A DNA stretch of 64,000 nt from an uncultured delta proteobacterium (GTDB taxonomy: Bacteria; Desulfobacterota; Binatia; UBA9968), in NCBI GenBank assembly GCA_963760795.1, contig CAVXEP010000017.1, forward strand, positions 64,001 to 128,000, written 5' to 3'. Under the pieces are notes generated by a model. The model was not told where the DNA came from. It saw only the letters and a program-made list of their open reading frames with translations, and did no database searches. Below, in pieces: positions 11,894-37,297 of this stretch. The position numbers and the translations under genes are program-made. Within the stretch, counting starts at the first letter, position 1, and the number at the start of each line of letters is the position of its first letter.

Positions 11894-11980
11894 AGCGCCC
11901 TCCCAACCAGATTTTTCCGGTGGATCGAACCTATCGCGGCATGGGTTCGCTTGTCAATTGGCGGCGGTAAGAATGGCAGC

Positions 11981-12053: not shown

Positions 12054-12063
12054 ACGAATCCGT

Positions 12064-13470: not shown

Positions 13471-13590
13471 AAGGATATCCCGTGAGCGGGACTTAGATGC
13501 GGCGGACTTGCACGGCGCAATCGGCAGCTTGTCGTTTCATCGGCACCGCCGGACTCTAGCACCTAGCTTGGGTCAAAGCTAGGCAAACTA

Positions 13591-13620
13591 TTGATGCGTG
13601 GCTGCCAGGCAGCCTATAAG
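13591..13620 (+). promoter_or_regulatory. Putative sigma-70 promoter with palindromic operator in the spacer
   Basis: TTGATG-N18-TATAAG with perfect palindrome GGCTGCC-A-GGCAGCC (13600-13614) between the hexamers. Confidence 0.4.
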
Positions 13621-13656
13621 ATAACGAATTATCGAAAGAAAGTAAGTACAAAAGGC

Positions 13657-17131: not shown

Positions 17132-17133
17132 GC

Positions 17134-17930
17134 TTACTCTTTGTACAGCCCTTCCTTCTTGATCTGCTGATACACACCCTCGAAGAACCAGGCGAAGTAG
17201 GCCGTGCCCATGCGCATGCAATACTCCAGGTTGAAGCCAGGGCGCGTCTCGGCCTTGCCTTCGATGAGCAGGTTCTTCAAAACCATCCAGTCCAAGATCG
17301 GCATGCGCCATGATGCCGTCATGTTCTTCCAAATCGGCCTTGGCGTGGACGCGAAAGTAGACGATCTTTTCTTCGGGGAAATTATAAACCTTGCGCAGCG
17401 TCGTACCGAAGAAGCGCGCCCAATGGCCGACGGCTTCCTCGACGCAAAACGACGCCCACCACTCGACCATGGTGCCCTCGTAGAGGACGCCGCGGTAGTA
17501 CTCCAGGAACGCGCGGCACTCGGCGAGCATTTCGTATTCGACCATCTCATCGTCGTTGAGTCCGAAGTTGCGTCCCTGTTCGAGGACGATCTGAATATGG
17601 CCGGGCGGCTTGGGATGCATCATCTCGTCGGCCACATGGGCGGCGAAATGCTTTTGCAGCTCCGGATGGCGCTTGAAAAACGGCAGAGTGGCGCTGGTAG
17701 GCGACACCGTGGAAATTATTGATCTCGGCGACAAAGCCGTGCCAGTTCTGCCAGAAGATTTTGATCGCCTCCATCGGCAGTGTGCCGTTGCCCATGTCGG
17801 TGTGGAAACGACCTTTGATCAGCCAGCGGTCGGCTATGTCGAGTAAATATTTCTTTAAGTCCGCGATCACTGCGTCGGCTTCCTGCGGCGAAAGTTTTTT
17901 CCCGGAAAAATCCTGTCTGCCTAGTCCCAT
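17134..17930 (-). CDS. Heme-oxygenase-like (TenA/PqqC/CADD) diiron-type protein; two apparent frameshifts (~17688, ~17293)
   Basis: Joining three frames gives about 264 aa with ADEMMHPKPPGH, VEEA and YFRVHAKADLEEH, matching the CADD-type E..H/E/H..D..H ligand pattern; RBS aaggagg. Confidence 0.72.
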
Positions 17931-20397: not shown

Positions 20398-21879
20398 CTA
20401 GATCGCGACCTTATCTTCCGCCGCGCCCTTTTCGTATTTGGCGGCGTTGTTTTTGAACGATTCGAATTTCATCCGCACGTAAGGCGAGGTGTAGCCATTC
20501 AAGATGCGCTCGATGCGGCCCGGCTTGCTGTAAAAAGACTGAAAGGCCCAGCCCGTCAACTCACCCAACTGCTGGCGCGTCAGGTGCTTAGTCGGCATGA
20601 CGCTATGCTCCAAATCGTAAAGACTCAGATTGTCGACTTCGATGATGTTGTTCTTCACCGCCGCTTTGTAGATCGGCGAGCCGGGGATCGGATTGAGCAC
20701 TTGAATCATGACGATATCAGGATCGATTTCGTCGACCGCTTTGGCGCGCTGGCGAACCTTCGCTTCGTCGTCCTCCCAAAAGCCGTTGAGATAGGTCGAG
20801 ATGGTGGAAATATCGTTCTTGCGCAGGAACTGAATTAGTTCTTTCAACTCTTTGACACCGACTTTCATCGGTCCCTTGCGCGCTTCGGCGATCTCTTCGT
20901 CCGTGCCGCCGTCGATGCCGATCAACACTTGATACAAACCGACTTTGCGCAGCCGCGGCACCAGGTCCATGTCGCGAATCAAGTTCTGCGCCCGGCTGAG
21001 CATGAACCAGCTCATGTCTAACTTTTTCTCTTCCAACGCTTCGACCAAGTCGACCATTTTCTGCCGGTCGGAGTTGAAGTCATCGTCCATGAAGGTCAGC
21101 GCTTTGACGCCGTAGGTCTTGTTTAACAGTTCCATTTCATCGGCGACTCGCTTGCCGCCTTTAGTGCGGTGCGAGCTGAAATCCCGTGGATTGCGCTGGT
21201 CGACCAGCCACCACTCGTAGCAGAAATGACAAGCACCCTCGCATCCCCGAGAAGTCACCGATTCGTTGTAATTGGGTATCACCGAATAACCATAATACTT
21301 GTCCATCGGAAACAAATCGTAGGCTGGCAGGGGCAGGTCATCGAGATTGGCAATTACTGGCCGCGGCGGGGTCAGCACCACCTCGCCATTCTTTCGGTAT
21401 GCCAAGCCCTTAATAGCGCTGAAATCAGGCGCAGGTTTTTTCAGTTCCTCCAACAACTCCCCAACCGCATGTTCATTGTCGGCAAACACCCCGACAATCG
21501 CGAAGTCGAGTTGCGGATTATCGGTCATGATCTTCTGCGGCACCGCGGTGTACATCAAACCGCCGCCGATGGTGACGGTTTGCGGAGCGATTTCCTTGAT
21601 TTTTTGCATCGCCGCATGAAAGCGGTTGAGCGTCGCGGCGCCGCCCGCCGCGGCGATCATGGCGCCGAAGAACACCGCATCCGGCCGCTGCCGCTTCACC
21701 TCGTCGATCATCTGGTCGTCGTTCAACCCCAGCGCGCGGCAGTCGAGGACCGCCACCTCCGCGGCTTTTTTCTCGCGGATAAATGCCGCGACCTGGGCGT
21801 GCAACGAGTTGACGGCCAAATGACGGTCGCCCCACGGCGCCCAGTTGCCCATAGGGGGCGTGATAAAGAGGAGTTTCAT
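20398..21879 (-). CDS. Cobalamin-binding radical SAM protein (BchE/class B methylase superfamily)
   Basis: N-terminal B12-binding-like domain (VLDCRA, TIGGG, IKGLAYR, DDLPLPAYDLFPM), TSRGCEGACHFC CxxxCxxC, FMDDDF, PIPGSPIY; RBS ggag. Confidence 0.9.
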   Translation of the reverse strand: MKLLFITPPMGNWAPWGDRHLAVNSLHAQVAAFIREKKAAEVAVLDCRALGLNDDQMIDEVKRQRPDAVFFGAMIAAAGGAATLNRFHAAMQKIKEIAPQTVTIGGGLMYTAVPQKIMTDNPQLDFAIVGVFADNEHAVGELLEELKKPAPDFSAIKGLAYRKNGEVVLTPPRPVIANLDDLPLPAYDLFPMDKYYGYSVIPNYNESVTSRGCEGACHFCYEWWLVDQRNPRDFSSHRTKGGKRVADEMELLNKTYGVKALTFMDDDFNSDRQKMVDLVEALEEKKLDMSWFMLSRAQNLIRDMDLVPRLRKVGLYQVLIGIDGGTDEEIAEARKGPMKVGVKELKELIQFLRKNDISTISTYLNGFWEDDEAKVRQRAKAVDEIDPDIVMIQVLNPIPGSPIYKAAVKNNIIEVDNLSLYDLEHSVMPTKHLTRQQLGELTGWAFQSFYSKPGRIERILNGYTSPYVRMKFESFKNNAAKYEKGAAEDKVAI

Positions 21880-22108
21880 GTTATCTCCTGGTACCGGCGG
21901 GATTAGTTTCAATCAAAGTATTTAATAGGTTAACGATTGTCAAGATGAGCCGCCGAGAGTATCGGCGACGGACGGTTAAATCCTCGATAGAAATATTGGC
22001 TAACTGGAGATCATTAATCAGTTGACAACCTCCGACCCTTTTGGTACTGCTGCCGAAGCTAGGCGTCGGTAACAAGAACTTAATAGAAACCCCACAAAGG
22101 AGACCGTT

Positions 22109-23136: not shown

Positions 23137-25860
23137 ATGCGCAGACTCGGCGGCGTGACAATATTAATATTTGTTCTTGTCGTAATGTTCTTTCGCCAGG
23201 CAATCGGGCTGTATGTCGATTGGTTGTGGTTCCAGGACGTTGGCTACGGCCCGCTCTTTGGAACGATCTTATTTTATAAGTTCGCACTTGGCGCTTCTGC
23301 CGGCACGCTTCTCGCGTTGCTCATTTACGTCAATTTGAAGATCGCCTCTTCGTCAACGGGCGGATTTCGCTACTCCAGCGCGGAAAACATTATCGAGCTG
23401 CCGCCACCGGAACTGATCGATCCAATTCTTAAGCGGCTGCTTCTGCCCGGCGCCCTGCTCGTCGGCCTCATGGCCGCGCCCCAAGGGGCGGCCAATTGGG
23501 AACAACTCTCGCTGTTTGTCAACTCGACATCGTTCAATCTGCAAGATCCCCAGTTTGGCCGCGATGTCGGTTTTTATGTGTTTGTTTTGCCCTGGCTGCA
23601 AATTGTCTATCACTGGGCGATTTTCGCCATCGGTGTCACCGCGGTTGCCAGCGCCGCTGTCTACTTGGTCTATCGGGGCATTGAGTACACAGCACGCGGC
23701 CTTTTTCTCGGCGAACGCGCGCGCAGTCATCTGTTGATCTTGTTGGGTTTGTTTCTATTGATCAAAGCCTGCGGTTACTACCTAGACGCCTTCGATCTGT
23801 TGCATTCGCCGCGCGGCGTTTCCTTCGGCGCGAGCTATGCCGACATCTATGGCACCCTTCCAGCGCTCCGCGTGCTGACGTTTCTGGCACTCATTGCGGC
23901 GGCGCTCTGCTTTGTGCAGATAGCCCGCACCGGCTATAAATTCGTCTTCCTCGGCGTTGGCGCCTTGGTGGCAGTCCACTTATTGGGTCTCAATGCTTAT
24001 CCGACGCTCTTGCAACGCTTCCGTGTCACGCCCAATGAAATCGAGGCGGAACGGTCGTTCATCGAGCGCACCATTAAATTCACCCGGCTCGCCTTTGGCC
24101 TGGATAAGATTGAAACCAAGGAGTTTCCCGCCGATGAGCAGTTAACAGCCGCCGACTTGAAGCGCAATGAATCGACCATCAGTAATATCCGCCTATGGGA
24201 CCATCGGCCGCTCCTGACCAGCTACGCCCAGCTCCAGGAGATCCGGCCTTATTACAAGTTCATCGATGTCGACAATGACCGTTACATCATCGACGGCACC
24301 TTTCGGCAGGTGATGTTGTCCGCTCGCGAGCTGTCACATCGCCATTTGCAAAGTCAAAACTGGATCAACGAGCATCTGACTTTCACCCATGGCCATGGCG
24401 TGGTCTTTGGACCGGTGAATCAGGTGACCTCCAGTGGTCAGCCCGAGTTTTTCATCAAAGATATTCCGCCGCTGGCGACCACTTCGCTGAAAATCACCCG
24501 CCCCGAGATCTACTACGGCGAACTCGCCAATGAGTATGTACTCGTCCAGACCAAATCCCAGGAATTGGACTACCCCTCTGGCGATCAGAATATATACACC
24601 ACATACAAAGGAAAAGGCGGCGTGGCGATCGGCAGCTTCTGGCGCAAGTTGGTTTTCGCGGCGCACCATACGTCCATGCGCATCCTGCTATCCCAGGATC
24701 TCACCGGCGAAAGCCGGATACTTTTCCATCAGAAGATCCAGGAGCGGGTGAAGAAAATCGCGCCGTTTGTCACCTTCGATACTGACGCCTATATCGTCAT
24801 CGCCCAAGGCGGCAGGTTATTCTGGATTATTGACGGCTATACCAATTCGGCCCGCTATCCCTATTCCGCACCACTGAGCCGGCAAGGGATGAATTATATT
24901 CGCAACTCCGTCAAGGCGGTCGTCGACGCCTATAACGGCACGGTGGAATTTTATCTGAGCGATCCAGCGGATCCGATCATTCAGTCGTTCGCCAAGACTT
25001 TCCCGCAAGTGTTTAAACCTCTCGAAACCATGCCCGAGGATCTGCGCGCCCATGTGCGTTATCCCCAGGATCTCTTCACGATCCAAGCCCATGTCTATGC
25101 CACCTACCATATGCAGGACCCACAGGTCTTTTTTAACAAGGAGGATCTCCTGAGCATCCCGCGGCGCACGATAGAAGGCCGCGAGCGCGATATGGAGCCC
25201 TACTACACGATCATGCGCCTGCCAGGAGAGGAGAAGGAAGAATTCATTCTGCTCTTACCGTTCACGCCGAATAAACGCGACAACATGCGCTCCTGGCTGG
25301 CGGCGCGCAGCGATGGAAAAAACTACGGCAAGTTAACCGCGCTGGAATTTCCCAAAGCGAAATTGGTCTATGGCCCCAAACAGATTGATGCGCGCATCGA
25401 CCAGGATACCATCATCTCCCAACAATTGACGCTGTGGAGCCAGCGCGGCTCGCAGGTGCTCCGCGGCAGCCTACTCGCCATCCCCATCGAGAAGTCCTTG
25501 CTCTACGTGCAGCCGCTCTATTTGGCCGCGGACCAAGGCTCATTGCCGGAATTGAAACGGGTAATTGTCGCCTTCGGTAACCGCATCACTATGGAAGAAA
25601 CGCTCGATCAAGCCCTGCAAAGCATCTTTGGCGCTAAGCCAGCGGTGGCGCCAGAGGCGCTGCCACAGCCCGCCAGTGCAGCGGTATTGCCACCGCCCGT
25701 CAAAGGGGATCCATCGCTATCGCGCCAGGCGTTGGATCATTTCCAGCGCTCCCAGGAACTACTCAAACAAGGCAACTGGGCTGGCTATGGCGAGGAGCTG
25801 AAGAAAGTCGAGGCCCTGCTCAAAGAAATGCAAAAGGGCCGTGAGTCCGAGGCGAAATAA
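23137..25860 (+). CDS. UPF0182 family membrane protein
   Basis: DWLWF, DPQFGRDVGFYVF.LP, NIRLWD, QEIRPYY, YIRNSVKAVVDAYNG, HVRYPQDLF, EPYYTIM, PELKRVIV. Confidence 0.92.
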   Translation: MRRLGGVTILIFVLVVMFFRQAIGLYVDWLWFQDVGYGPLFGTILFYKFALGASAGTLLALLIYVNLKIASSSTGGFRYSSAENIIELPPPELIDPILKRLLLPGALLVGLMAAPQGAANWEQLSLFVNSTSFNLQDPQFGRDVGFYVFVLPWLQIVYHWAIFAIGVTAVASAAVYLVYRGIEYTARGLFLGERARSHLLILLGLFLLIKACGYYLDAFDLLHSPRGVSFGASYADIYGTLPALRVLTFLALIAAALCFVQIARTGYKFVFLGVGALVAVHLLGLNAYPTLLQRFRVTPNEIEAERSFIERTIKFTRLAFGLDKIETKEFPADEQLTAADLKRNESTISNIRLWDHRPLLTSYAQLQEIRPYYKFIDVDNDRYIIDGTFRQVMLSARELSHRHLQSQNWINEHLTFTHGHGVVFGPVNQVTSSGQPEFFIKDIPPLATTSLKITRPEIYYGELANEYVLVQTKSQELDYPSGDQNIYTTYKGKGGVAIGSFWRKLVFAAHHTSMRILLSQDLTGESRILFHQKIQERVKKIAPFVTFDTDAYIVIAQGGRLFWIIDGYTNSARYPYSAPLSRQGMNYIRNSVKAVVDAYNGTVEFYLSDPADPIIQSFAKTFPQVFKPLETMPEDLRAHVRYPQDLFTIQAHVYATYHMQDPQVFFNKEDLLSIPRRTIEGRERDMEPYYTIMRLPGEEKEEFILLLPFTPNKRDNMRSWLAARSDGKNYGKLTALEFPKAKLVYGPKQIDARIDQDTIISQQLTLWSQRGSQVLRGSLLAIPIEKSLLYVQPLYLAADQGSLPELKRVIVAFGNRITMEETLDQALQSIFGAKPAVAPEALPQPASAAVLPPPVKGDPSLSRQALDHFQRSQELLKQGNWAGYGEELKKVEALLKEMQKGRESEAK

Positions 25861-25881
25861 GATCGTAGAACCACACAGCGT

Positions 25882-27870
25882 TCAGCCTATGTGCGGGTTA
25901 GTGTGGTAGCGGCCACTGACAAGCAGATCCTCGGCGCTACGCAAGATCGCTAAGCCGTCTTCGGTCCGCTCTGCCTGCGTTGCGCTCATCGCCATTTCTG
26001 ACCATGGCGTGCCACGAGCCGCGCGCTCATAAGCAATCCGGTCGCCGGACTCGCGCAGGACAATCAGCTCACGATCCGTGACCATGCCGTAGCGCTTCTT
26101 GTTGTAAATCACCATGGCGGCCGGAGCTTCGGCTGGCTCCTTGAGCACATCGCGGCCGAAAAATGTGCTGCGGTATGCGCCGCCGACCATGCCCATGACC
26201 GTCGGCGGTAAGTCCATCTGACTGGTTACCGCGCCGATGCGCCCCGCCGCGATATGTTTCGGCGCCAGGAACAAAGCCGGGACGATGTATTCGTCGATGG
26301 GGATGAGCTCATTGCCGCGCAAGTGCACGCCATGATCGCCGACAAAGACAAATAACGTATCATCGAAGTAGGGCGCCTGGCGCGCCGCGCGAATAAATTG
26401 ACCGACACAGAAGTCGGCATAGAGAAAGTTATTCAACTCGGCGAGCTCAAAGCCGGGCGGCACCCTGGTATCAGCGCCAAGTGGTTTAATCTTGCCCGCC
26501 GGGAATTGCCAGGGCGAGTGCAGCGATACCGTCAACAGGGTGGCAAAAAACGGCTTCCCCGCTTCATGGTAACGGCGAAATTCCTCGCCGGCCCGTTCAA
26601 AGAGATCTTCATCCGACACACCCCAAGGGCTTTTGTAGTGCGGCGCGGAGAAATCTTTTTCCTCGATAAAGCGATCGAAGCCGTTACCGAGAAAGAAAGC
26701 CAGCATGTGATCGAAAATCCCCTGGCCGCCGTAGAAAAAACTCGTCGCATAACCGCGCTCACGCAGCACACTCGCCAAGGTCAAAAAATTTTGCCGCGCC
26801 TGCGGCCGTTTGACCACCCCTTCGCCGGGAAGTGGTGGAAACGAACAGACCGCGGCTTCGAGGCCTTGGATGGTTCGCTCTCCGGTGGCGTAGCAGCGTT
26901 CCAACAGCAGGCCTTCTTCAGCGAGTTTGTCTAGTTCCGGTGAAAGCGCCGGCACACCGCCAAGACATCCGGTCAGCCCTCCGGTAAAACTCTCCATCAC
27001 GACTAACACCACGTTGAGCGGCGCGGCCTTCGCCGCATTGGTAATTCGCCGCACCAGAGGATTCGGCCCGTCGTCGGTGAATTGACAGCCCTCAGCTAAA
27101 ATTTTGCGGGACCGCTCAATCGCTCGCTCGGCGGATGGTAGTTGGGTCACGCTCTTAAGCGCCGTGAATTCATTTTTAGCGCGTTGACTCCACTCGTAGA
27201 GCAGATTGAAAATCCCGCAACAGGCGATCTCGTTGGCGATCCGATTGGTTGTAAACGACGCCAGACTGGGATTGAGCGGCCGATGATCGAAGGTGCCGCG
27301 GCTAGCGAAGCCGACGACAAGAAGCCAGAGTAGAGTCATAACGCGATCCGACAACCACAGGAAATCACTTCTGGCGTTGCCCTCCGCCACTGGAGCTAGA
27401 AACTGTACCGCAATCACTGCCAACCAAGCGCCGATCCCGCTCAGCAAGAAAATGCGCACTAAGGGATAGGCTTTGGCGACGGTCTTGAGCACCTCGCGAT
27501 CGGCTCCATGTTCGAAGACCAGATAATTGGGTCGGAAATCATAAAAGCGAAAGAAGAAACTGCCGGCGATCTCGGCGAAAAATAGTGTGAAGTAAAGAAC
27601 GCTGAGGTAGAGCCCAAAGAAAAACTGACTTGCAACAAGGAGATCGCCAGGCAACGTCAGCGCGGCAACCACCAGCGGCAGGCAGCCTCGGCTGACGATC
27701 ACGGCGTCCAACCGGAAACCGATCCAAAATAGTTTTAACTTTTGCCGGCGGTTCAGCTCTTTGACATCGGCGCGCCGTTCCCAATAGAGCCACAGGCGAA
27801 ACCCGGTCAAAATGAGCGCGGCAACAAGGCAAATGGCGACGGCTAAGGTCGTGCGCGGCAGTTCAAACAT
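25882..27870 (-). CDS. LTA synthase/MdoB-like membrane sulfatase-fold phosphotransferase
   Basis: N-terminal TM region (GFRLD), NVVLVVMES, ATGERT (catalytic Thr), LTVSLHSP, FVGDHG. Confidence 0.88.
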   Translation of the reverse strand: MFELPRTTLAVAICLVAALILTGFRLWLYWERRADVKELNRRQKLKLFWIGFRLDAVIVSRGCLPLVVAALTLPGDLLVASQFFFGLYLSVLYFTLFFAEIAGSFFFRFYDFRPNYLVFEHGADREVLKTVAKAYPLVRIFLLSGIGAWLAVIAVQFLAPVAEGNARSDFLWLSDRVMTLLWLLVVGFASRGTFDHRPLNPSLASFTTNRIANEIACCGIFNLLYEWSQRAKNEFTALKSVTQLPSAERAIERSRKILAEGCQFTDDGPNPLVRRITNAAKAAPLNVVLVVMESFTGGLTGCLGGVPALSPELDKLAEEGLLLERCYATGERTIQGLEAAVCSFPPLPGEGVVKRPQARQNFLTLASVLRERGYATSFFYGGQGIFDHMLAFFLGNGFDRFIEEKDFSAPHYKSPWGVSDEDLFERAGEEFRRYHEAGKPFFATLLTVSLHSPWQFPAGKIKPLGADTRVPPGFELAELNNFLYADFCVGQFIRAARQAPYFDDTLFVFVGDHGVHLRGNELIPIDEYIVPALFLAPKHIAAGRIGAVTSQMDLPPTVMGMVGGAYRSTFFGRDVLKEPAEAPAAMVIYNKKRYGMVTDRELIVLRESGDRIAYERAARGTPWSEMAMSATQAERTEDGLAILRSAEDLLVSGRYHTNPHIG

Positions 27871-27895
27871 CTGGCTGGTGCGAGCTCCGAGCTAT

Positions 27896-29293
27896 TTACA
27901 TGCCAAACAGCGAAAAAAACAACCGTGCCCGCTCGGCGATAGTGAGAGGAGCGACGACATTCCAAAAATTGATGACGGCGAAAAAAGTCCAAACGCAGGC
28001 GATGCGTCGCAGGCTGCGTAACTTGCTCGCTGACTCGGTTTGCGCCGCTGGCGGCCGGCTGCGTTGGCGCTGTTGGCGTAGCATCGAGATGGCGATGCCG
28101 GCAGCAAGCAAGGCGCAATAGATCAAGCGCGCCCCCAGTAGCGACCAGAGTCTATGCCAGTCGCCGGCAACCAATTGCTCTTTGTGCTGCAAGAGGTGAT
28201 AGTACATGTTGCCGACGAAGGCCGCGGCAAAAACCGCGGCGACTAGCCGCAACATCGGTGAGTGACGAAAGTAGCGCGCGTAGAGCGGCAGAAAGAAGCT
28301 CTCCATCATCAACTCTTTGAAATAGTAATAATAGCGGTTCCAGAACTCTACGACAGTTTGCGCCAGTAGCGGCTTGTAAGTATTGCGAAAAATATTGAAG
28401 CCAAACAGCCGGATCACGCCGACCCAGACATGCCCCTTGGCCGCCAGCGAAAGCGTCTCCCAGACCAGCTCCAGATAAAGGCTGAACCATACTTGGACCA
28501 GCGGGAACGCCAGTTGTCTGCTGAGGATTTGCTTCACCCGCGGCAGACCGAAAGTGTAATCATAAAACAGCGCGCTGAAAGGACTTTTCGGATCGCCGTA
28601 TATCAGGGCCGCGATCAGTTCCAAAACTACCTTCCACAACGCCACCAGGAGCAAGAGCTTAAACCCGCCGAGTATCGTCCGCGCATAGCTGTCCGGCGTC
28701 TGCGCCACGGTGCGCGACAAATAATCATGACCCTTTGCCAGGAGGCGTATTGGTGCCATCCCAGATCGGCCAAATGTAAAATAAGTGATCGCGAAAACGG
28801 CTGTTTTGCGCTTTGCCGCGTTGACCCGACAAAAGCATGTAGCCCGTACGCCAGATCAAGTAGGGAAACGATAGCGCAATCACTGATAGAACCGCGACGA
28901 CGAATCCATCACTGGGCGGCAAACCACAGCAACGCGAGGAGCAGCCAGAAAATTAAATGAAAAAATATTTGTGGCCGGCGGCGCATCATCGGCGGCAACT
29001 GCTTGAAACGTAACCGTGGCGAGATAAAGAGCGAAAAGAGACCGAGCAGAATCAAGAAACGCCAGACCATGCACTAACCAAGGCGCCAGGGCGCGATAGT
29101 CGTGCCATTTCGCGTTGCGGCTAAAGATGCCGACCAGCCCGGCGACTATAGCGCCGAAAAAAAGCATCGATTTGCGTCGTTCCGGCGTCAGCCAAATCAC
29201 CCAGGGTTGGCCGCTCAGCCAGGCGATCAACCGGTCATTTTCATGGAATTGCGAAATACTTCGGTAAGCCGTACGCAGGGCGGTGAGATTCAT
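27896..29293 (-). CDS. Divergent MBOAT-family membrane acyltransferase (several frameshifts)
   Basis: LFGFNIFRNTYKPLLAQTVVEFWNRY resembles the MBOAT N-F-x-P...FW motif; GNMYYH gives a putative catalytic His; hydrophobic fragments in frames 28880-29293, 28725-28922 and 27896-28759; ATG overlaps the carrier-protein stop. Confidence 0.7.
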
Positions 29294-29551
29294 GACGCCG
29301 CTTCGCGGGCAATTAAATCGAGGATGGAATTGACCGAGCGCAGATCTTCCGGGTCGATGCCTCGCTCGCTGAAGTCGACTCCATAGGACCTGCTCCAAGT
29401 AGGTGACGATCTGCAGCAGCGCCAACGAATCGATCAAACCAGACTCGACCAGGCCGGACTGTTCGTCGATGGCCGCGTGCGCATAATCTGGTCTTTGGAT
29501 CGTCCGTAAAAAATCGATCAGCTCTTGTCGGCTTCGTTCCCGGTCCGTCAT
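29290..29551 (-). CDS. Acyl/aminoacyl carrier protein (DltC-like); frameshift near 29389
   Basis: LVESGLIDSLALLQIVTYLEQ phosphopantetheine motif; the corrected frame continues SYGVDFSERGIDPEDLRSVNSILDLI to TGA. Confidence 0.85.
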
Positions 29552-31137
29552 CGTAAACTTCCAAGTATTAGTTTTGTCAAAACAGCGGCGTTGCTGCTGG
29601 CGTCACGAACCACGCCGTAACAGTCCAACCAAGTCCACAGGTGCAATGACGCGCACAGTTCCTGCACCGTCGCACGGCTCACCTTGCCCCGCGAGTTTTG
29701 CGGCAGCGCGTCGACGACATACCAGCGCTGGGGAATTTTAAACTCCGCCAAATGCTCTTTGAGCCAGCCATGGAGCTGGCGCAGGGTCGCGTCATCCTGA
29801 CGGCTCAAGACCACCGCCATGGCGACGTTCTGACCGTAGGCCGGATCGGCGATGGCAAAAGTACATACCGCGGTGGCAGGCTCGAACCGTTCGACCACGG
29901 CGTCGACATCGGCGGGATAGACTTTAGCGCCGCCTTTATTGATTTCGTCCCGCTCGCGCCCCTTGAGATAGAATCTGCCGCGATCGTCGATAAGCCCCAT
30001 GTCGCCGCTGACGAACCAGCCGCCCGAAATCACCTGATCGGTGAGTTCCGGCTGACCGCAATAGCCTTGCATCAGCGCCGGCGTGTTGATCCAGACATAG
30101 CCCGTCTCAGCGACTTTGCACTCGGCACCGTCGGCAAACGGCGTCTGCGGTTCGGCGTTTTTGAGAATTTTGATCACCGCACCCCAAGGCACACCGACTA
30201 GGCCATCTTCCGGTTCGAAGTCTTCAATGCTCGTGCCGGCCACCCAACTGCCCGTTTCAGTAATACCGTAGGCGTTATAAACCGCGCGGATTCCCGACCA
30301 TTGTTGAATCTGACCCCATAGGTGCGCTGATAACGGCGCCGAGCCGCAATGAATGCGCTGGAGGGTTTTGCCCTGCGGTGGCTTACTGCCCTTCAAGCTC
30401 AACCCCCACATGGATGGCACGGAGGAGAGAAACGTAATCTTCTGCTCATCGACGATGGGCCCTAAGCGTAGGAGTAAATACGGACTGAATGGCTGCGCGA
30501 TGATCACATCCTGGCCGAAGAGCCAAGGAAACAAACTGTTACAGATCAAGCCATGACCGAAATGGGTCGGCAACAAACATAGCGTGCGGCGAAAGCAATC
30601 GATACCGAGACTCTGGCGTAAACACAGCCAACGCGCGCGTAATGACCGATGAGTGTGAACCACGCCTTTGGGCACTCCGGTGGTGCCGGAGGTAAACAGG
30701 ATCAACGCCTCATCGTCGAGCCGCGCGGCGCAGAATGCACTGGCCGACGACACCGATGTTACCGCATCCGCCGCCAAGTCGCTCGAACTGAGGAGCTTAA
30801 CTCCCAGCGCAGCCAGCGCGTCACCAAGAGCCATGGGCACCGTCGCATCGATGAGCGCGATCTTGGGCGTCACCGTCCGCGCTAAGTTTTCGACTTCAAA
30901 CGGCGTCAACCGGTTGTCCACTGGCACAACGCTCGCCCCGACGTTCCACGCAGCCAGCAGGTCGACAAAGAATTCGAGATTGTTGCCGTAAAGGATGAAC
31001 ACGCGATCGCCACGCTGTAAACCATGGGCGCGCAGCCGGGCGGCGCTGGCCGCTAAACGCATGGCGATCTCTTGGCTGCTCCAGCTGCGGCCCGATTCCA
31101 GCTCGCTCAGAGCACCGCATGTCAAATCGGCAAACAT
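29548..31137 (-). CDS. Class I adenylate-forming enzyme (AMP-binding/acyl-CoA synthetase-like)
   Basis: LFTSGTTGVPKG, AYGITETG, SGDMG, KGRERDEINKGG, LPQNSRGKV. Confidence 0.92.
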   Translation of the reverse strand: MFADLTCGALSELESGRSWSSQEIAMRLAASAARLRAHGLQRGDRVFILYGNNLEFFVDLLAAWNVGASVVPVDNRLTPFEVENLARTVTPKIALIDATVPMALGDALAALGVKLLSSSDLAADAVTSVSSASAFCAARLDDEALILFTSGTTGVPKGVVHTHRSLRARWLCLRQSLGIDCFRRTLCLLPTHFGHGLICNSLFPWLFGQDVIIAQPFSPYLLLRLGPIVDEQKITFLSSVPSMWGLSLKGSKPPQGKTLQRIHCGSAPLSAHLWGQIQQWSGIRAVYNAYGITETGSWVAGTSIEDFEPEDGLVGVPWGAVIKILKNAEPQTPFADGAECKVAETGYVWINTPALMQGYCGQPELTDQVISGGWFVSGDMGLIDDRGRFYLKGRERDEINKGGAKVYPADVDAVVERFEPATAVCTFAIADPAYGQNVAMAVVLSRQDDATLRQLHGWLKEHLAEFKIPQRWYVVDALPQNSRGKVSRATVQELCASLHLWTWLDCYGVVRDASSNAAVLTKLILGSLR

Positions 31138-31276
31138 GAAGGCTAAATATTCCTGAATACTAAACTATTTTGTAACAACCCCGGCCGAACCAAGCAAGGC
31201 GAATCGCTCCGATAACGGCATGCCCGGCGCAACGCGGCTCTCGTCTTTGGAAACAATAGTTGCTATAAAGCGCCGG

Positions 31277-32008
31277 ATGAGCGATCAGCGCCGCCGGCTC
31301 GTCATACGCGGGGCCATCTTCATCGGCCTCATGTTGCTGCTGTTTTTTTTCAGCCGCTACATTCCGCGGCCGTTTAGCGCTTTCGCGCCTCCCGGCGCCG
31401 AGCTCGACGATTTCGAGGGCATCTATTCCAGCAGCGATAAGCTCGGCAAGTTTCTGCAACAGCTGGGCCCCTATTCGCCGGCGGTCTTCGTGGTGTTGCA
31501 AATCCTCCAAGTGATAGCCGCACCGTTTCCGGGGGAGCTTACTGGGGTCGCCGGCGGCATTGTCTACGGCGAAACCATCGGCTTCATCCTCTCCATTGTC
31601 GGCCTGGCCATCGGTTCCTGGGTAGCTTTCGAATTGGCGAGTATACTCGGCCGGCCATTTGTCGAACGCTTCGTTAAACGCGATGTCTTGGAGAAGTTTA
31701 ATTTCCTCACCACCAAGACCGGTGTGTTCATCTGCTTCGTGCTGTTTCTGTTTCCCGGCTTTCCCAAAGATTATCTTTGCTACGTGCTTGGCTTGAGCCG
31801 AATGAGCGTAACTACCTTCCTGCTGGTATCGATCATCGGGCGAATTCCCGGTACCTATTGGCTTACTATGCAGGGAGCGATGATCAGAAATGAGCAGTAC
31901 CTCACCTTCGCGATTTTCGTCGGCGTCACTCTCGTTGGCTTGGTAATCGGCTATATATATCGCAATCAAATCTTCGCTTGGATCAAGCACCGCCACGATC
32001 ATGACTAG
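31277..32008 (+). CDS. TVP38/TMEM64 (DedA superfamily) membrane protein
   Basis: ILQVIAAPFPGE, GGIVYG, FLFPGFPKD, GRIPG. Confidence 0.88.
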   Translation: MSDQRRRLVIRGAIFIGLMLLLFFFSRYIPRPFSAFAPPGAELDDFEGIYSSSDKLGKFLQQLGPYSPAVFVVLQILQVIAAPFPGELTGVAGGIVYGETIGFILSIVGLAIGSWVAFELASILGRPFVERFVKRDVLEKFNFLTTKTGVFICFVLFLFPGFPKDYLCYVLGLSRMSVTTFLLVSIIGRIPGTYWLTMQGAMIRNEQYLTFAIFVGVTLVGLVIGYIYRNQIFAWIKHRHDHD

Positions 32009-32056
32009 AGCATTGCTAGTCGTGGCTCTCGCACTTCGAGCTTCTATGTGAATGGC

Positions 32057-32881
32057 TTAAAGCCCTGAGCCGCGCGTGAGGTAATAGAAGATCGGCGCCA
32101 CGACGATGCGATACCAGGCGAACGGCGCCAGCCTGCCGTGGCTGAGGTAGCGGACAAAACCTTTAATTGCCAGTAACGCCACCGCGAAAGAAATCACGAA
32201 GCCGATAACCAGGCCGATGACATCGTCGGACATCAATTGATCGCGCATTTTGAGCAGCTCGTAGCCGGACGCCGCGCATAATACCGGGACAGCGATCAGA
32301 AACGAGAATTCCGCCGCCGCCTTGCGCTCGAGTCCAAGTATCATACCACCGACGATGGTCGCCGCCGCTCGCGAAGTGCCGGGCCAGAGCGCCAAGATTT
32401 GAAATAGCCCGACCCCTAATGCCTGCACCAACGTCACTGCGTCCAAACCGTTGGCGCGGCGGCGCGCGGCGAGCCGCTCGACGAGTAGAATCGCCACACC
32501 ACCGACCGCCAACGCCAAGCTGACGGCTTCCGGATTGAAAAGTTTTTCTTTGATCCCATGGCGGGCCAAGTAACCCACCGCTAACGCCGGCAGCGTCGCC
32601 AAAGCGACACGCCAGAGGCCTGGCCAACCATTCAAGCTCGATTCTGCCGTCGCCGTGAATAGCCTCGTACCAGGGACCAAGCCGATAAACCGCCGCCAGT
32701 AGAGCCAAACCACGGATAGGATCGCACCCAACTGAATCGCCACTTCGAAGCTCGCGGCCTTGTCGCCGACGAAGCCGAGCAAATGACCGGCGATAATCAG
32801 ATGGCCGGTGGATGACACGGGTAAGAACTCGGTAAGTCCCTCGACGACCCCCAACACGGCCGCAATGGCGAAATTACTCAT
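32057..32881 (-). CDS. uppP: Undecaprenyl-diphosphate phosphatase (BacA/UppP)
   Basis: LGVVEGLTEFLPVSSTGH, IQLGAIL, PGTSR, AAEFSF, FAWYR. Confidence 0.95.
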   Translation of the reverse strand: MSNFAIAAVLGVVEGLTEFLPVSSTGHLIIAGHLLGFVGDKAASFEVAIQLGAILSVVWLYWRRFIGLVPGTRLFTATAESSLNGWPGLWRVALATLPALAVGYLARHGIKEKLFNPEAVSLALAVGGVAILLVERLAARRRANGLDAVTLVQALGVGLFQILALWPGTSRAAATIVGGMILGLERKAAAEFSFLIAVPVLCAASGYELLKMRDQLMSDDVIGLVIGFVISFAVALLAIKGFVRYLSHGRLAPFAWYRIVVAPIFYYLTRGSGL

Positions 32882-32967
32882 ACAGTTCCTTCCGATTGAG
32901 AGTCGTGCCGCCGCCCATACCGTCAATCGCTGCGCGACAAGCGCAAAGGTGAGCGAATCGGCGTCGA

Positions 32968-34866
32968 CTACGGTCGGGCGACGATTAAGTATTCGTCGTG
33001 CACCGCAAGTCTTTTGAGGACCACGCCGACGAGCCGTTCCAAGCGGCGCAGATTCTTCTCTTTTACGAGGATCACAAATGGCCTGTCGGAGCGGTTCCAA
33101 TGCTCGGCGAACTCGTCAAAAGTTAAGAGAGATTTCCCCCAGCGCGTGATCGGGTCGGGTTGATTGGTAAGCTCATAAAAATTGCCCAAGAACGTGCTTT
33201 TCTTATTGCTGTGGGTGACCACCCACAGCGGCTTGGCGGTGTTGAGGTAAAATGGCAACGCTTCGGCATAGGTATCGTATAAGACGAGCTGTGTCGTTGC
33301 GGTGATGTACGGCAGCGCCTTTACGGCGATTTCCTGCGACGATCTGGCCGGCGCTAACAAGACCATCATTTCGCTGAGCGTAACCATAAAGATCAACAGA
33401 CCGAATCCCTGACTGAAATAAACATACCGGAGACTAACCGCCGTCCAGATATTCCGCTTGCCAGCGAGATAAACCAGTGCCAGTGAAATAAACGCGCTGC
33501 TCCAGAACAGAATTGCGATGCGATCGTAGCGCCCGCGAATAATCTTGGGAAAGATCTCGGGCGCGATCACACCGGCGGCCAAGTAGATGAACAACGAACC
33601 TAAAACCATCCAGATCGCGGCGAAGCCGTAGCGGAGGCGTTCTCGGGAATCGCTTAATATGCGACTCACCGCGACGCCGAGCAAAATTGCCAGTGGGGGA
33701 AAGCTCGGCAAAATGTAATGCGCCAACTTGGACTTGGACATCGAGAAAAACATGATCGGCAAGAGCGCCCACAAGATTAGCCACAAGGTCCGGTCGTCGA
33801 GCCGGCGTCGCCAATGAAACCTTACCGTCGCCGGAAGCAGCAAGGTCCAAGGCAACAAGCCCAAGGGCACGACATAGAGGTAGAAGTACCAGGGACTGAA
33901 ACGGTCAAACTTCTTCGTCGCAAAACGGCCAAAATGCTCGTCCCAAAAATAGTAACGGAGATAGCCGGGATTCTGCGTCTCGGCCAAAATATACCAAGGC
34001 ATTACGATCAAGAGAAACAGCACCACGCCAGAAAGCAAGCGTATCTTTCCCAAGATTCTCCAGCTGTTGGTAAGTAGGAGGTAAGAGACAATGATCATAC
34101 CCGGCACGATCAGACCGACGAGCCCCTTGGTTAGCGTGGCTACGCCGAGGGCGCCGTATAAGATCGCGCAGGTGGCCCAGCTCGCCGGCGATTCTGACTC
34201 CCGGGCGGCATGGTAAAAGGCGCACAACGCTAACATAATGTATGCGGTCAGGGTCATATCGAAAATCACCAGGCGTGAGAAGACAATAAACCCCGCGCTG
34301 GTAACTAGAACTAAGACGCTCCAACGGCCTTCCCATTCGCCCCACCAGCGACGGGCAAAAAAGTAGACCATGACGATACAGCCAAAAGCCGCCAGCGCCG
34401 ATGGCAATCTGGCCGCCCATTCGGAAACCCCGAAGATTTTGTAAGAGAGCGCGATCAGCCAGTAGAAAAAAATTGGTTTGTCGAGCACGGCACTGAAGTT
34501 TTCATGGGGCGTTATCCAATTGTTCAAGACGAGAATCTCGCGCGCCTTCTCAGCGTTCCGGCCTTCGTCCGGTTCAAACAAGGCCGGCCCGCCGAGTCGA
34601 TAAAAAAGAATCGCCAAGACAAAGCCGAACAATACCCAAGGGAACCAGGGATCAGTCGTGTTTTTCCGAGCTGATTCGCTTCCCTTATCAGGATTTATCG
34701 TTGAGATTGGCGGCACTGGAGAAGGCGTAGCTTTCGACGACGAATTTACCTGACGTTGCCAAATTATCAAGATAAAGAACAAATAAGCCGGATAACCAAC
34801 AGCCCCCGATCGATCCATGATCGATCGATGATTTTGCGAGCGTCCGATCGATGCTTCATGTGTCAA
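32968..34866 (-). CDS. ArnT-like GT-C glycosyltransferase (family 39/83)
   Basis: EPDEGRNAE..RE, DKP.FFYW, SEWAARLPSA, LTKG, SK.KL.HYILP; true start uncertain and probably internal. Confidence 0.85.
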   Translation of the reverse strand: MTHEASIGRSQNHRSIMDRSGAVGYPAYLFFILIIWQRQVNSSSKATPSPVPPISTINPDKGSESARKNTTDPWFPWVLFGFVLAILFYRLGGPALFEPDEGRNAEKAREILVLNNWITPHENFSAVLDKPIFFYWLIALSYKIFGVSEWAARLPSALAAFGCIVMVYFFARRWWGEWEGRWSVLVLVTSAGFIVFSRLVIFDMTLTAYIMLALCAFYHAARESESPASWATCAILYGALGVATLTKGLVGLIVPGMIIVSYLLLTNSWRILGKIRLLSGVVLFLLIVMPWYILAETQNPGYLRYYFWDEHFGRFATKKFDRFSPWYFYLYVVPLGLLPWTLLLPATVRFHWRRRLDDRTLWLILWALLPIMFFSMSKSKLAHYILPSFPPLAILLGVAVSRILSDSRERLRYGFAAIWMVLGSLFIYLAAGVIAPEIFPKIIRGRYDRIAILFWSSAFISLALVYLAGKRNIWTAVSLRYVYFSQGFGLLIFMVTLSEMMVLLAPARSSQEIAVKALPYITATTQLVLYDTYAEALPFYLNTAKPLWVVTHSNKKSTFLGNFYELTNQPDPITRWGKSLLTFDEFAEHWNRSDRPFVILVKEKNLRRLERLVGVVLKRLAVHDEYLIVARP

Positions 34867-34942
34867 TTGACATCCCCTAACCCCTGACGTAGCCTGACTC
34901 TCGCTTCACGGATTGTTGTTACCCATGACGCGGTACTTCACC

Positions 34943-36100
34943 ATGACCGCCAAAATGTTCTTGGTAGCAGTGTTGCTACTACAATCATTCGCGCCAGCTT
35001 TCGGTCAGCAACCCATCGCCAGCTTCTATTATGACGAGCGCGGCAGTGTAGTGCGCCAGGAGCAGGACACCAACGGTGACGGCAAAATGGATCGTTGGAC
35101 CTATTATAATAAGCAAGGTCAAGTCGAAAAAGTCGAACAGGATCTAAACTTTGACGGCAAGGCCGACACCTTCGCTATCTATGAAGCGGGCCGGCCGGTG
35201 CGCCAAGAGCTCGCCAGTAAGAACGATGGCCAGATCGACACTTGGTTTTTCTACAACGCTGCAGGCGAAATCGAACGGCGCGGCCAAGACCCCAGCCGTA
35301 CTGGCAAGGCCACGGTTTGGATCTATTATCAGAATGGCCATGCGGTACGCAGCGAGGAAACAACGAACTCGAGCGGTAAGTCTAACCGCACGGTCCATTT
35401 GCGCGATGGCCAGATCAGCCGCGTCGATGAAGACACCAACGGCGACGGCAAGCCGGATAGTTTTTCGTATCATGAGAACGGCCAGCTCGTGCGCAAGGAG
35501 TTGGACCGCAAGTTCAACGGCAAGATCGATCTCTGGGGTTACTATCAAAGCGGCCGCTTAATCAAACAAGAGGACGATCTGCGCGGCGACGGCAAAGTGA
35601 GCCGGATCGTCTACTTTGACGGCGACCAGGTGCTGCGCCGGGAGGAAGACACCGGCCGGCACGGCCGCATGGATATGATCGAGTCCTTCGCCCAGGGCAA
35701 GATCGCCAAACGGCTGCGCGATACCAAGGGTACCGGCAAGTGGGATATTGTTTACTATTTCGAAAATAACGAGCTCGACCGTGAGGAGCGCGACACCGAC
35801 GGCGATGGCTATTTCGATTTGCGGATTTTCTACGCTAAGGGCCAGATCCGCGCTCAGGAAGCCGACACCAATGGCGATCGGCGCGTCGATGTCTGGGTGA
35901 ATTTTACCAATGGCGAGCGCGTCGAACAGCTTGAAGATCTAAAGGCCGAGGGTAAGATAACTGCGCGCTATGTATTCAAAGGCGGACAGGTGGTCAGTCA
36001 AGAAGCGGTCGCCGACGGCCAACCGCCGCGGGCGTCGCCCGCCTTCGGAACCGTTGCGGAAGAGCTACGGGCTATGGCGCTGATACCGCCGCCGGCGTAG
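34943..36100 (+). CDS. Exported protein of about 13 tandem 24-aa beta-hairpin repeats (ExDxNxDGxxDxWxYYxxG)
   Basis: Signal peptide ending AFG; repeats such as EQDTNGDGKMDRWTYY, DEDTNGDGKPDSFSYH, ERDTDGDGYFDLRIFY. Confidence 0.8.
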   Translation: MTAKMFLVAVLLLQSFAPAFGQQPIASFYYDERGSVVRQEQDTNGDGKMDRWTYYNKQGQVEKVEQDLNFDGKADTFAIYEAGRPVRQELASKNDGQIDTWFFYNAAGEIERRGQDPSRTGKATVWIYYQNGHAVRSEETTNSSGKSNRTVHLRDGQISRVDEDTNGDGKPDSFSYHENGQLVRKELDRKFNGKIDLWGYYQSGRLIKQEDDLRGDGKVSRIVYFDGDQVLRREEDTGRHGRMDMIESFAQGKIAKRLRDTKGTGKWDIVYYFENNELDREERDTDGDGYFDLRIFYAKGQIRAQEADTNGDRRVDVWVNFTNGERVEQLEDLKAEGKITARYVFKGGQVVSQEAVADGQPPRASPAFGTVAEELRAMALIPPPA

Positions 36101-36175: not shown

Positions 36176-37297
36176 ATGAGAAGCCTCGCTGCATTCATAC
36201 TATCAGGTCTAATCGCCCAGGGTTGCGAAACCGCGGTAACCCAGTATCCGCCGGGTTCCGGGCAAATTCCTGGCGCAACTACCAACCCGCAACAGGCTAA
36301 AATCGACAACGATCGCCGCTGGGCTCATGCGGTTGAGAGCGCTCAGAAAGCCGCTTTTCTCGGCGGCATCTTCGGCGGCCCCTTCGGTGCGCCGGCGAGT
36401 ATGGTAATGGGTGTGATCGGCTTCACCTACGGCATGTTTAGCGCCGATTCGAAGATCGCCGAAGAGAAGGCCCAAGCCCAGGTGCGCTATCAAAAGGAAT
36501 CCGACAAAGACCGCGTCTTGGAAAGTGCCATTGAGCAGGAAATCGAACGTCAGCGCGCCTTCGAAAATCAGATTGCCGGGGCAACGGGGCAGCCGGTCAG
36601 CACGCAACCGGCGCGCCTACCACCCCAGGTCAATCAACCGGCACCGGCCGTGTCGAATCCTCAGCCGCAACCGAATAATTCGCCTGCTGGTATCACGATT
36701 GCCCGCGCCAGCACCCCACCGTCGCCGCCGCCTTTTCGCAATGTCGAAGTCCGCGATATCAACAATGACGGCGTGCCCGATATTTGGATTTACTACAATC
36801 CGCAGAAGCCGGCCGAGATTATCCGTCAGGAAGAAGCGACCAAGAACGATGGCCGCGTCGATGCCTGGAGCTACTACAAAGACGGTCAACTGATGCGCCG
36901 CGACGTTGATCGCAAAGGCCAAGGTCGCCCGGACACTATTTATTACTATGAGAACGACAAAATCGTCCGCGAAGAACGGGACGAGACCGGCGATGGGCGC
37001 ATGACCTACCGCGCGAGTTATCAGAACGGCCGCATTGAGAAAGTAGAAAAAGATTCCACCGGCCAAGGACGGCCCGACCTCTGGCTGTTCTATGATACTT
37101 CGCGAGACGGTGAGATCGTGGTAAAAGAGGAACGCGACTTAAACGGCGACGGTGTCGCCGATCTCTGGTCCTTCTACGATAACGGCAGGCTAGCGCGCCG
37201 GGATGTCAATGCTCCAGGACTGGAGATCTTGTCTAAACAAGATCAGGTGCCCCTACCCACCGCTGAGATAAGACCGCCTGCGATTCCCGGCAGCTAA
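36176..37297 (+). CDS. Putative lipoprotein with glycine-rich hydrophobic segment, Pro-rich linker and about 6 DxNxDG repeats
   Basis: LIAQGC lipobox-like; FLGGIFGGPFGA segment; DINNDGVPDIWIYY ... DLNGDGVADLWSFY. Confidence 0.78.
   Translation: MRSLAAFILSGLIAQGCETAVTQYPPGSGQIPGATTNPQQAKIDNDRRWAHAVESAQKAAFLGGIFGGPFGAPASMVMGVIGFTYGMFSADSKIAEEKAQAQVRYQKESDKDRVLESAIEQEIERQRAFENQIAGATGQPVSTQPARLPPQVNQPAPAVSNPQPQPNNSPAGITIARASTPPSPPPFRNVEVRDINNDGVPDIWIYYNPQKPAEIIRQEEATKNDGRVDAWSYYKDGQLMRRDVDRKGQGRPDTIYYYENDKIVREERDETGDGRMTYRASYQNGRIEKVEKDSTGQGRPDLWLFYDTSRDGEIVVKEERDLNGDGVADLWSFYDNGRLARRDVNAPGLEILSKQDQVPLPTAEIRPPAIPGS

Follow-up and report, generated by a model that had tools for sequence, protein, structure and literature searches.

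How does a bacterium with an outer membrane come to carry genes that resemble those by which Firmicutes attach D-alanine to their teichoic acids, and what does it do with them? The question is raised by a stretch of 64,000 nucleotides of an uncultured delta proteobacterium of the class Binatia (contig CAVXEP010000017.1, positions 64,001 to 128,000), which we call the window. At positions 25882-31137 of its minus strand stand four consecutive genes, here called the cassette: a ligase, a carrier protein, an MBOAT-like membrane protein, and an LtaS-like protein with a sulfatase fold. The first three form what we call the triad. The host must be diderm, because the window also contains secretin, TonB_2, ExbB/ExbD, PilMNOP and ArnT-like genes. 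The answer that we favor, with a little better than even confidence, is that this operon acylates an envelope component across the inner membrane, the acyl group being delivered by a carrier: the logic would be that of the Dlt pathway, with different parts.

The original prediction, made from the window alone, had named the four genes (with a carrier motif GLIDSL), an outer membrane, a ligase closer to acyl-CoA synthetases than to DltA, and no visible gene of the DltD/SGNH type. Pfam, orthologues and fold matches agree with it on the genes, and the list of window genes above on the outer membrane. The ligase and the missing partner are taken up below.

The membrane protein (27896..29293, minus strand), whose intact relatives are 462-466 amino acids long, has no match in Pfam or NCBIfam. 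Among its best 120 sequence matches, none has a precomputed Pfam domain, and those that bear a name are nearly all called 'hypothetical protein'; one JGI record is labeled DltB. Profile comparison and structure say more. Aligned with hhalign to 18 canonical members of PF03062, taken from genomes of the phylum to which the window belongs, the family of the membrane protein obtains an E-value of 3e-5 over 134 columns, and the alignment pairs FRNTYKPLLAxSIVDFWNRYYY in the membrane protein with NFxxPYxAxNxxEFWRRWHI in the MBOATs. The protein modelled with AlphaFold2 is P0001, an intact relative that is 93% identical to the C-terminal fragment of the window's protein; the model has a mean predicted local distance difference (pLDDT) of 84.1 and a predicted template modelling (pTM) score of 0.80. 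Foldseek yields three matches with E <= 0.001 for this model, all of them DltB (6bug, E 8.4e-5), and ranks 4-12 are all MBOATs. VIA-align aligns 360 of its residues to the DltB structure 8jem, with a Z-score of 18.3 and a root-mean-square deviation of 4.3, and gives a second DltB a Z-score of 17.7; MBOATs fill the first 19 ranks, with Z-scores between 9.5 and 18.3, and the following row falls to 4.5. The ESM Atlas model of P0117, compared with PF03062 clusters, reaches TM-scores of 0.65/0.68 and 0.63/0.60. Judged on these models, the membrane protein has the MBOAT fold, with its conserved helical core and central funnel, and DltB is the nearest solved structure. The original prediction had staked itself on this protein modelling as an MBOAT, and it does.

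The active site is partly kept. An excerpt of PMC11035591 gives the residues of DltB that matter here: the invariant catalytic His336, together with His289 and Trp285. A joint MAFFT alignment places His366 of the membrane protein, invariant in 60/60 sequences, on the 'WHG' histidine of the 18 canonical MBOATs, and Trp318 on Trp285 of DltB. The second active-site residue, a histidine, asparagine or aspartate, is absent: the motif reads FWNRYYYY where DltB has FWRRWH, and Tyr322 occupies the position of His289. The C-terminal ends also differ. All 18 canonical proteins carry F[IL]Y[FYA]xF, and the family of the membrane protein carries F[FL][ST][LI]FG[LFW], without the tyrosine. This tyrosine has a known role: in the MBOAT-SGNH systems described in an excerpt of PMC12148441, the acyl group passes via an invariant tyrosine of a C-terminal hexapeptide, located on the MBOAT itself or, in Dlt, on DltX. 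No DltX-like end of an open reading frame occurs between 22 and 36 kilobases (kb) of the window, nor in 77 related loci, and no SGNH, GDSL or DltD domain is found among the Pfam matches of the 55 open reading frames of the window that were scanned, which bears out the absence first remarked on the window alone.

We now turn to the two proteins that would feed the membrane protein. The ligase gene (29603..31137, minus strand, its true C-terminus lying in another frame) has the Pfam domains AMP-binding (1e-57) and AMP-binding_C (1.1e-7). In NCBIfam it comes closest to long-chain-fatty-acid--CoA ligase, with 253 bits for a cut-off of 476, followed by the FadD7 family; MenE is matched as well, and all of these scores are far under the family cut-offs. 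In the PDB, the matches are FadD5 (4.6e-45), malonyl-CoA synthetase (1e-41), oxalate-CoA ligase (4.8e-41), and also feruloyl-CoA synthetase, FadD13 and FadD10. The best relatives in the two collections are acyl-, malonyl-, oxalyl- and succinylbenzoyl-CoA ligases, and no DltA appears among the best 25 NCBIfam or the best 60 PDB matches. Three motifs, TSGTTGxPKG, YGxTE and a C-terminal GK with the catalytic lysine of the A10 region, are conserved in 44 orthologues. On its sequence, the ligase is a member of the ANL superfamily of adenylate-forming enzymes, of the acyl-CoA-synthetase type and not of the DltA type, as had been supposed. The A4-like segment LLPTHFGHGLICN hardly varies among the 44 orthologues and is devoid of aspartate; we take this segment to be the place where amino-acid-activating enzymes carry the aspartate that binds the amino group. 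This lack, together with the acyl-CoA-type relatives, suggests that the substrate is a non-amino carboxylic acid, which the ligase would load on the carrier.

The carrier (29290..29551, minus strand), of about 86 amino acids when read over three frames, has its phosphopantetheine serine in the motif SGLIDSLA, and its orthologue in the related locus L001 matches PP-binding at 2.1e-6. Residues D41 and S42 are invariant in 30 aligned orthologues. Against the DltC model, the carrier scores 23.8 bits for a cut-off of 68, and the models AsbD and OlsHI-ACP score slightly higher. This last weak match brought up the OlsH/OlsI ornithine-lipid pathway as a candidate, which we rejected: that pathway works with a GH3-like enzyme and an alpha/beta hydrolase and has no relation to the cassette.

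Do these genes belong together? A pattern scan over one genome per species gives 160 stretches with a relative of the membrane protein, from Binatia, Proteobacteria, Rokubacteria, Nitrospirota, Verrucomicrobiota, Acidobacteriota and others, and 77 loci were kept for comparison. On a larger scale, a search of 1.84 billion representatives with the membrane protein returns 977 clusters, taken at 50% identity, at E <= 0.001. In 67 of the 77 loci the distance from the membrane protein gene to the ligase is at most 1.6 kb, and in 65 the carrier is within 2.7 kb; 63 loci have both nearby. The order ligase, carrier, membrane protein is found 32 times, the order membrane protein, ligase, carrier 34 times, and other arrangements 11 times. 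An LtaS-like gene stands within 2.3 kb of the membrane protein gene in 32 loci, on the same strand in 26 of the 77; an EptA-like gene within 4 kb in 7; and a gene of the isocitrate-lyase/phosphoenolpyruvate (PEP)-mutase superfamily in 25. The remaining 24 loci have none of the three, and several of these end at contig ends. The conserved core is thus the triad of ligase, carrier and membrane protein, and the LtaS-like gene is an accessory. The original prediction had coupled all four genes: the link to the LtaS-like gene does recur in several phyla, but only in those 32 loci, and other lineages pair the triad with the isocitrate-lyase-family or the EptA-like gene instead.

Where the LtaS-like gene shares the strand, it mostly follows the cassette directly; in L030, L043, L045 and L055 it is about 1.9-2.2 kb from the membrane protein gene, with the ligase and the carrier in between. 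In L021, L022, L024, L039, L042 and L052 the accessory gene lies on the opposite strand. In L031, L033, L076 and L077 the start of the LtaS-like gene overlaps the stop of the membrane protein gene as ATGA. On a quick tree of the membrane protein, the association with the LtaS-like gene turns up at seven or more distinct positions: two clades of Binatia, Acidobacteriota, Rokubacteria/Methylomirabilota, Thermodesulfobacteriota, Gammaproteobacteria and a clade of betaproteobacterial paralogues. With 32 loci spread over that many places, the LtaS-like gene is a recurrent partner, though not a universal one.

The product of the isocitrate-lyase-superfamily gene has 286 amino acids and the motif EDQKRPRRCGH, and in NCBIfam it is nearest to PrpB, with 150 bits for a cut-off of 354. 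Its Pfam name, PEP_mutase, suggested a true PEP mutase. PEP mutases have the motif EDKxxxxxNS, and 20/20 members of this group carry the lyase-type ED-Q-x5-C-G, so this candidate was discarded. Envelope genes are seen next to the triad in other genomes: GT9 heptosyltransferases in L016 and L071, ArnT-like genes in L011, L016 and L067, and GT4, NeuB and cytidylyltransferase genes in L042. Apart from these and the three accessory types, no other gene family was found to recur beside the triad in the 77 loci. The small proteins encoded 5' of the ligase in L016 and L020 are mutually unrelated and have no matches.

Stop-free frames of about 1100 amino acids in L031, L033, L072, L076 and L077 looked like fusions of the MBOAT with the sulfatase. 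They are not: the sulfatase frame is merely open across the membrane protein gene, which terminates at a stop in its own frame, and in public gene calls the sulfatase is a gene by itself, with a product of 670 amino acids. An apparent fusion of the membrane protein with the isocitrate-lyase-family protein in L024 is the same artefact of overlapping frames. A search for longer, fused relatives of P0001 found none, which is weak evidence. Some genomes have a second paralogue of the membrane protein that lacks a ligase and carrier of its own, and sometimes has its own sulfatase (L048, L056). In the betaproteobacterial loci L038, L059 and L065, a lone paralogue is part of a conserved block that also includes an MFS transporter and SSB, joined in L059 and L065 by an AsmA-family gene; these three kinds of neighbor give no clue to the acceptor.

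The fourth gene of the cassette (25882..27870, minus strand) is intact and encodes 662 amino acids: about five hydrophobic segments within residues 1-188, according to hydropathy, precede a sulfatase-fold domain over residues 286-563 (PF00884, 3.6e-43). Its PDB relatives are VP1736 of Vibrio parahaemolyticus (3lxq, 2.4e-81), LtaP (4uop, 9e-19) and LtaS (2w8d, 5e-8), and the four sulfatase subtypes tested across the loci all have 3lxq as best solved relative, then LtaS and LtaP. Our literature searches found no paper on VP1736 or 3LXQ. Residues E293, D512, H513 and H451 are invariant in 21/21 homologues linked to a cassette, and position 333 is a threonine in 18 of them and a serine in 3; by motif correspondence with LtaS, we take E293, D512 and H513 to be metal ligands and Thr/Ser333 to be the nucleophile. 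The NCBIfam scores are low, with 37 bits for LtaS NF053595 (cut-off 970), 80 for PRK12363 (572) and 45.5 for PRK03776 (574). The protein thus falls under the cut-offs of the LtaS equivalog and of OpgB, and its placement in the LtaS family, within the alkaline-phosphatase superfamily of membrane transferases, is one of architecture and motifs.

The following scheme can be proposed. In the cytoplasm, the ligase would adenylate a carboxylic acid that has no alpha-amino group and load it on the phosphopantetheine arm of the dedicated carrier; the domains for this are present. The carrier would dock on the cytoplasmic face of the membrane protein, as DltC does on DltB. By analogy with His336 of DltB, His366 would lie on the outer face, and the acyl group would be handed to its acceptor there. 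Since the membrane protein lacks the C-terminal tyrosine shuttle and has neither an SGNH protein nor DltX as a partner, this transfer is probably direct, to an acceptor anchored in the membrane, as in the MBOATs that acylate lipids. The LtaS-family enzyme would most likely move a phospho-headgroup, for example glycerophosphate, from a phospholipid onto the same target, and this step would either create the acceptor or add a second decoration. The target is probably lipopolysaccharide or another glycoconjugate of the periplasmic face.

A more detailed version of this scheme, which we consider tentative and rather unlikely to hold in all its parts, is a two-step decoration like that of teichoic acids, in a diderm: a VP1736-type enzyme adds glycerophosphate or another headgroup to lipopolysaccharide or a periplasmic glycan, and a new subfamily of MBOATs then esterifies the headgroup directly, with neither tyrosine shuttle nor SGNH enzyme, using a small non-amino organic acid from its own ligase and carrier. 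This acid is perhaps a dicarboxylate, which in other lineages would come from the isocitrate-lyase-family enzyme whose gene is linked to the triad. If so, the decoration would add negative charge, not positive.

Several observations weigh against carrier-dependent acylation as the function of this operon. The signal for the membrane protein is faint in plain sequence searches: PF03062 and PF13813 match 0/6 members of its family at E <= 10, and 0/53 more distant members significantly, the one MBOAT_2 match having an E-value of 0.075; a profile of the family finds only chance myosin matches among the PDB sequences; and hhalign gives its pairing with the MBOATs a probability of just 73%. The catalytic chemistry may also differ, because the position of DltB His289 is held by a tyrosine. 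The relatives of the ligase range from fatty-acid to small-dicarboxylate ligases with similar E-values, so that the acid may be fatty or small. In 45 of the 77 loci, some of which are cut by contig ends, there is no LtaS-like gene within 2.3 kb, and where it does stand near other envelope genes, this may be no more than the clustering of such genes. The cassette is patchy in the genus, with a strong match in 8/24 other genomes. Contigs of one RNA library do span parts of the region, but DNA carry-over may explain them. Finally, the window's copy is broken by insertions and deletions that are concentrated in about 900 nucleotides, and these could be real.

This last point leads to the strongest of the alternatives. 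Three of the four genes are frameshifted in the window, those of the ligase, the carrier and the membrane protein; the sulfatase-fold gene is intact. We compared the window with L001, L003, contigs from three soil DNA runs and contigs from one RNA library. Near the 3' end of the ligase gene, a 1-nucleotide deletion around 29643 shifts the tail, and the called open reading frame (29548-31137) runs past the true end. In the carrier, a 1-nucleotide insertion near 29385-29390 splits the reading over two frames. The membrane protein gene has five events, near 29053, 29038, 29011, 28920/28917 (a 2-nucleotide deletion) and 28737/28731, which cut it into four frame segments. All the relatives compared read through every one of them. 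The shifts also affect the junctions of the operon, at each of which the triad had been predicted to show an ATGA overlap. The overlap between carrier and membrane protein is real, and is found in L001 as well; the one between ligase and carrier is an artefact of the shifted tail of the ligase. In the correct frame, 51 nucleotides separate the end of the ligase gene, at about 29603, from the start of the carrier gene, and 52 do so in L001. Downstream, the sulfatase-fold gene does start 25 nucleotides past the stop of the membrane protein gene, as predicted.

One explanation is that the cassette of this genome, which has a single copy, is a very recent, decaying pseudogene, the seven or more indels being real. 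The indels are indeed confined to about 900 nucleotides (29643-28731), with the sulfatase gene and most of the ligase gene spared, and they are not clearly within homopolymers; the cassette, with its strong matches in just 8 of the 24 other genomes, is also dispensable in the genus. However, the substitutions in the broken part of the membrane protein gene keep the biases of intact genes: read in the frame of the L001 orthologue, it departs from L001 at 40 codons synonymously and at 30 non-synonymously, and third positions account for 50 of the 81 differences. The gene of the essential helicase PriA (56767-58883) is likewise split, into overlapping open reading frames of 511 and 199 amino acids, its N-terminal domain beginning at profile position 55. 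The assembly, of 6.58 Mb (megabases) in 35 contigs, is nonetheless only 88.9% complete, and seems to carry indel errors throughout. In L003, a sister assembly from long reads, the ArnT-like gene (2557-4320) and the UPF0182 gene (11459-14163) are broken into several tblastn pieces and the cassette is intact, a mirror image of the window that suggests clustered errors of long reads. Because of the split priA, the contig number and completeness, the breaks in L003 and the substitution biases, the indels are most likely errors of a long-read assembly and not gene decay, a judgment made from the assemblies themselves; the pseudogene is an unlikely explanation, all the more so as the relatives and soil contigs read through.

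Some further observations concern the assembly. Three other genes of the window match no more than part of their profiles: FAD_binding_4 (18026-19186), PGA_cap (4303-5433) and RsmB (60618-61778). None of the public sequencing runs contains more than 0.36 of the sampled words. Between the window and the run X1 contigs from soil, 81 of 1108 bases are different over the membrane protein gene (28212-29319), and only 13 of 907 over the ligase gene (30140-31046). This roughly five-fold gap in divergence between neighboring genes could come from recombination between strains or from a mixed consensus.

If the genes are functional, they might still serve another purpose. A second alternative, a shade less probable than the pseudogene, is that they recycle or remodel lipids: the ligase would be a fatty acyl-carrier synthetase, and the MBOAT-like protein would re-acylate a membrane lipid, for example diacylglycerol or a lysolipid left by the LtaS-family enzyme, in the manner of Aas, DGAT1 or the LPLAT-type MBOATs. 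LtaS-type enzymes release diacylglycerol, which fits. So do the top two NCBIfam matches of the ligase, the presence of FadD5, FadD13 and FadD10 among its PDB matches, the lack in the membrane protein of the tyrosine shuttle used in polymer acylation, and the match of its fold with MBOAT7, LPCAT3, DGAT1 and ACAT1 (Z-scores 9.5-15.6). But the ligase matches are all far under their cut-offs, small-dicarboxylate ligases score equally well, and the isocitrate-lyase-family enzyme of 25 loci, a lyase of small acids, fits a small acid better than a fatty one. The closest structure is DltB and not a lipid MBOAT, and no LtaS-like gene that could leave a lipid to re-acylate is near the triad in 45 loci.

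There is also the possibility, slightly weaker again, that the triad and the LtaS-like gene are not coupled at all, and are independent envelope-modification genes sharing an island. The variety of the accessory (LtaS-like, EptA-like, isocitrate-lyase-like or none), which is sometimes on the opposite strand, speaks for it, and the ArnT-like, UppP and DedA neighbors in the window show that such genes do cluster here. However, among the 26 loci where the LtaS-like gene is on the strand of the membrane protein, many have the two genes separated by gaps of 14-55 nucleotides or joined by ATGA overlaps, and the pairing has come up in seven or more separate clades and in three gene orders, each time with the VP1736-like subtype. 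Least probable by far is a sulfatase-fold enzyme that replaces DltD, its Thr/Ser taking the acyl group from the membrane protein and passing it to the acceptor, a role not known for the alkaline-phosphatase superfamily. In its favor, the searches turned up neither an SGNH partner nor DltX nor a tyrosine shuttle, several lineages have the sulfatase gene translationally coupled to that of the membrane protein, and position 333 is Thr/Ser in all 21 homologues. But the metal ligands characteristic of phosphoryl transfer (E293, D512, H513) are all present and invariant, the nearest characterized relatives are the phosphoglycerol transferases LtaS and LtaP, and in the 45 cassettes that have no sulfatase gene nearby the membrane protein must manage without the enzyme.

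The surroundings of the cassette deserve a brief description. Divergent from the ligase gene, on the plus strand, is a gene for a DedA/VTT-family membrane protein (31220..32008; Pfam VTT_dom, 5.3e-22), whose position is kept in close relatives. On the minus strand follow the undecaprenyl-diphosphatase gene UppP/BacA (32057..33100; Pfam BacA, 2.2e-77; NCBIfam NF001390, 303 bits, over the cut-off of 260), with a called start that is probably over-extended, and a GT-C glycosyltransferase gene like ArnT (32968..34866; Pfam PMT_2, 1.6e-22). The best NCBIfam match of the latter is lipid IV(A) 4-amino-4-deoxy-L-arabinosyltransferase, at 216 bits for a cut-off of 567. Two adjacent proteins (34913-36097 and 36176-37294) have weak matches, below cut-off, to the Lsa25.6 adhesin family, and in close relatives a homologue of this kind keeps its place beside the ArnT-like gene. 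The secretin, TonB_2, ExbB/ExbD and PilMNOP genes, the last part of a type IV pilus cluster, come from the Pfam scan of the 55 open reading frames. No Rfam family, riboswitches included, was found in positions 25000-36000 at E <= 1; at gathering scores, eight loci yield signal recognition particle (SRP) RNA and tRNA only; and promoter and terminator scans return no more sites than in shuffled sequence.

Elsewhere in the window, a single open reading frame of 542 amino acids (16109-17734) joins a Haem_oxygenas_2 region, that of an iron-containing redox enzyme, to an O-methyltransferase and a dimerization domain, an unusual pairing. A B12-binding radical SAM enzyme (20401-21912) adjoins a short-chain dehydrogenase and an ABC permease.

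How does carrier-dependent acylation by this cassette compare with systems already described? The closest is DltA-DltC-DltB-DltX-DltD, the D-alanylation of teichoic acids in Firmicutes. The logic is shared: an adenylating enzyme, a small phosphopantetheinyl carrier and an MBOAT-fold protein, the last having DltB as its closest solved structure and keeping the invariant histidine of DltB. An LtaS-family gene stands beside the cassette, and LtaS makes the acceptor of the Dlt pathway. The differences are as clear: the ligase belongs with the acyl-CoA synthetases and lacks an aspartate in its A4-like segment; DltD/SGNH and DltX have no counterpart in the cassette; His289 of DltB has become a tyrosine; PF03062 does not recognize the membrane protein; and the hosts are diderm.

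Among diderms, AlmE-AlmF-AlmG adds glycine to lipid A in Vibrio cholerae, AlmG being an LpxL-type acyltransferase that works on the cytoplasmic side. There too, an acyltransferase acting on the envelope is supplied by a ligase and a carrier protein, and the genes have others for lipid A modification as neighbors, but the substrate is an amino acid and the acyltransferase of the LpxL type, where the window has an MBOAT fold and a ligase unlike those for amino acids. The sulfatase-fold protein shares with LtaS/LtaP, OpgB and VP1736 the five or so hydrophobic segments ahead of the domain, the conserved metal ligands and the Thr/Ser nucleophile; it differs from LtaS and OpgB in scoring far under the cut-offs of their models, and its nearest relative, VP1736, is uncharacterized.

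The systems PatA/PatB, AlgI/AlgJ/AlgX and WssH/WssI of Gram-negatives, as presented in the excerpt of PMC12148441, likewise use an MBOAT to move an acyl group from the cytoplasm to an envelope target outside it. These systems take it from acyl-CoA and rely on a C-terminal F-x-Y-x-x-F shuttle and an SGNH partner, while the cassette has its own ligase and carrier, an end without tyrosine, and no SGNH protein. The same excerpt, from a 2025 paper on PatAB, gives MBOAT systems other than Dlt no carrier protein, so that carrier-fed acylation by an MBOAT is, on that account, known so far only from the Gram-positive Dlt pathway. Consistent with the undescribed route of the original prediction, our literature searches, judged from titles and the openings of abstracts, found no published description of such a system. 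The cassette would be a widespread, unannotated relative of Dlt-type acylation, and finding its acid and its acceptor would assign a function to three uncharacterized families together. If our reading is correct, bacteria with an outer membrane have an added route by which to modify their surface, set apart from Dlt by a different ligase, by the lack of the known shuttle and by a partner from the alkaline-phosphatase superfamily.

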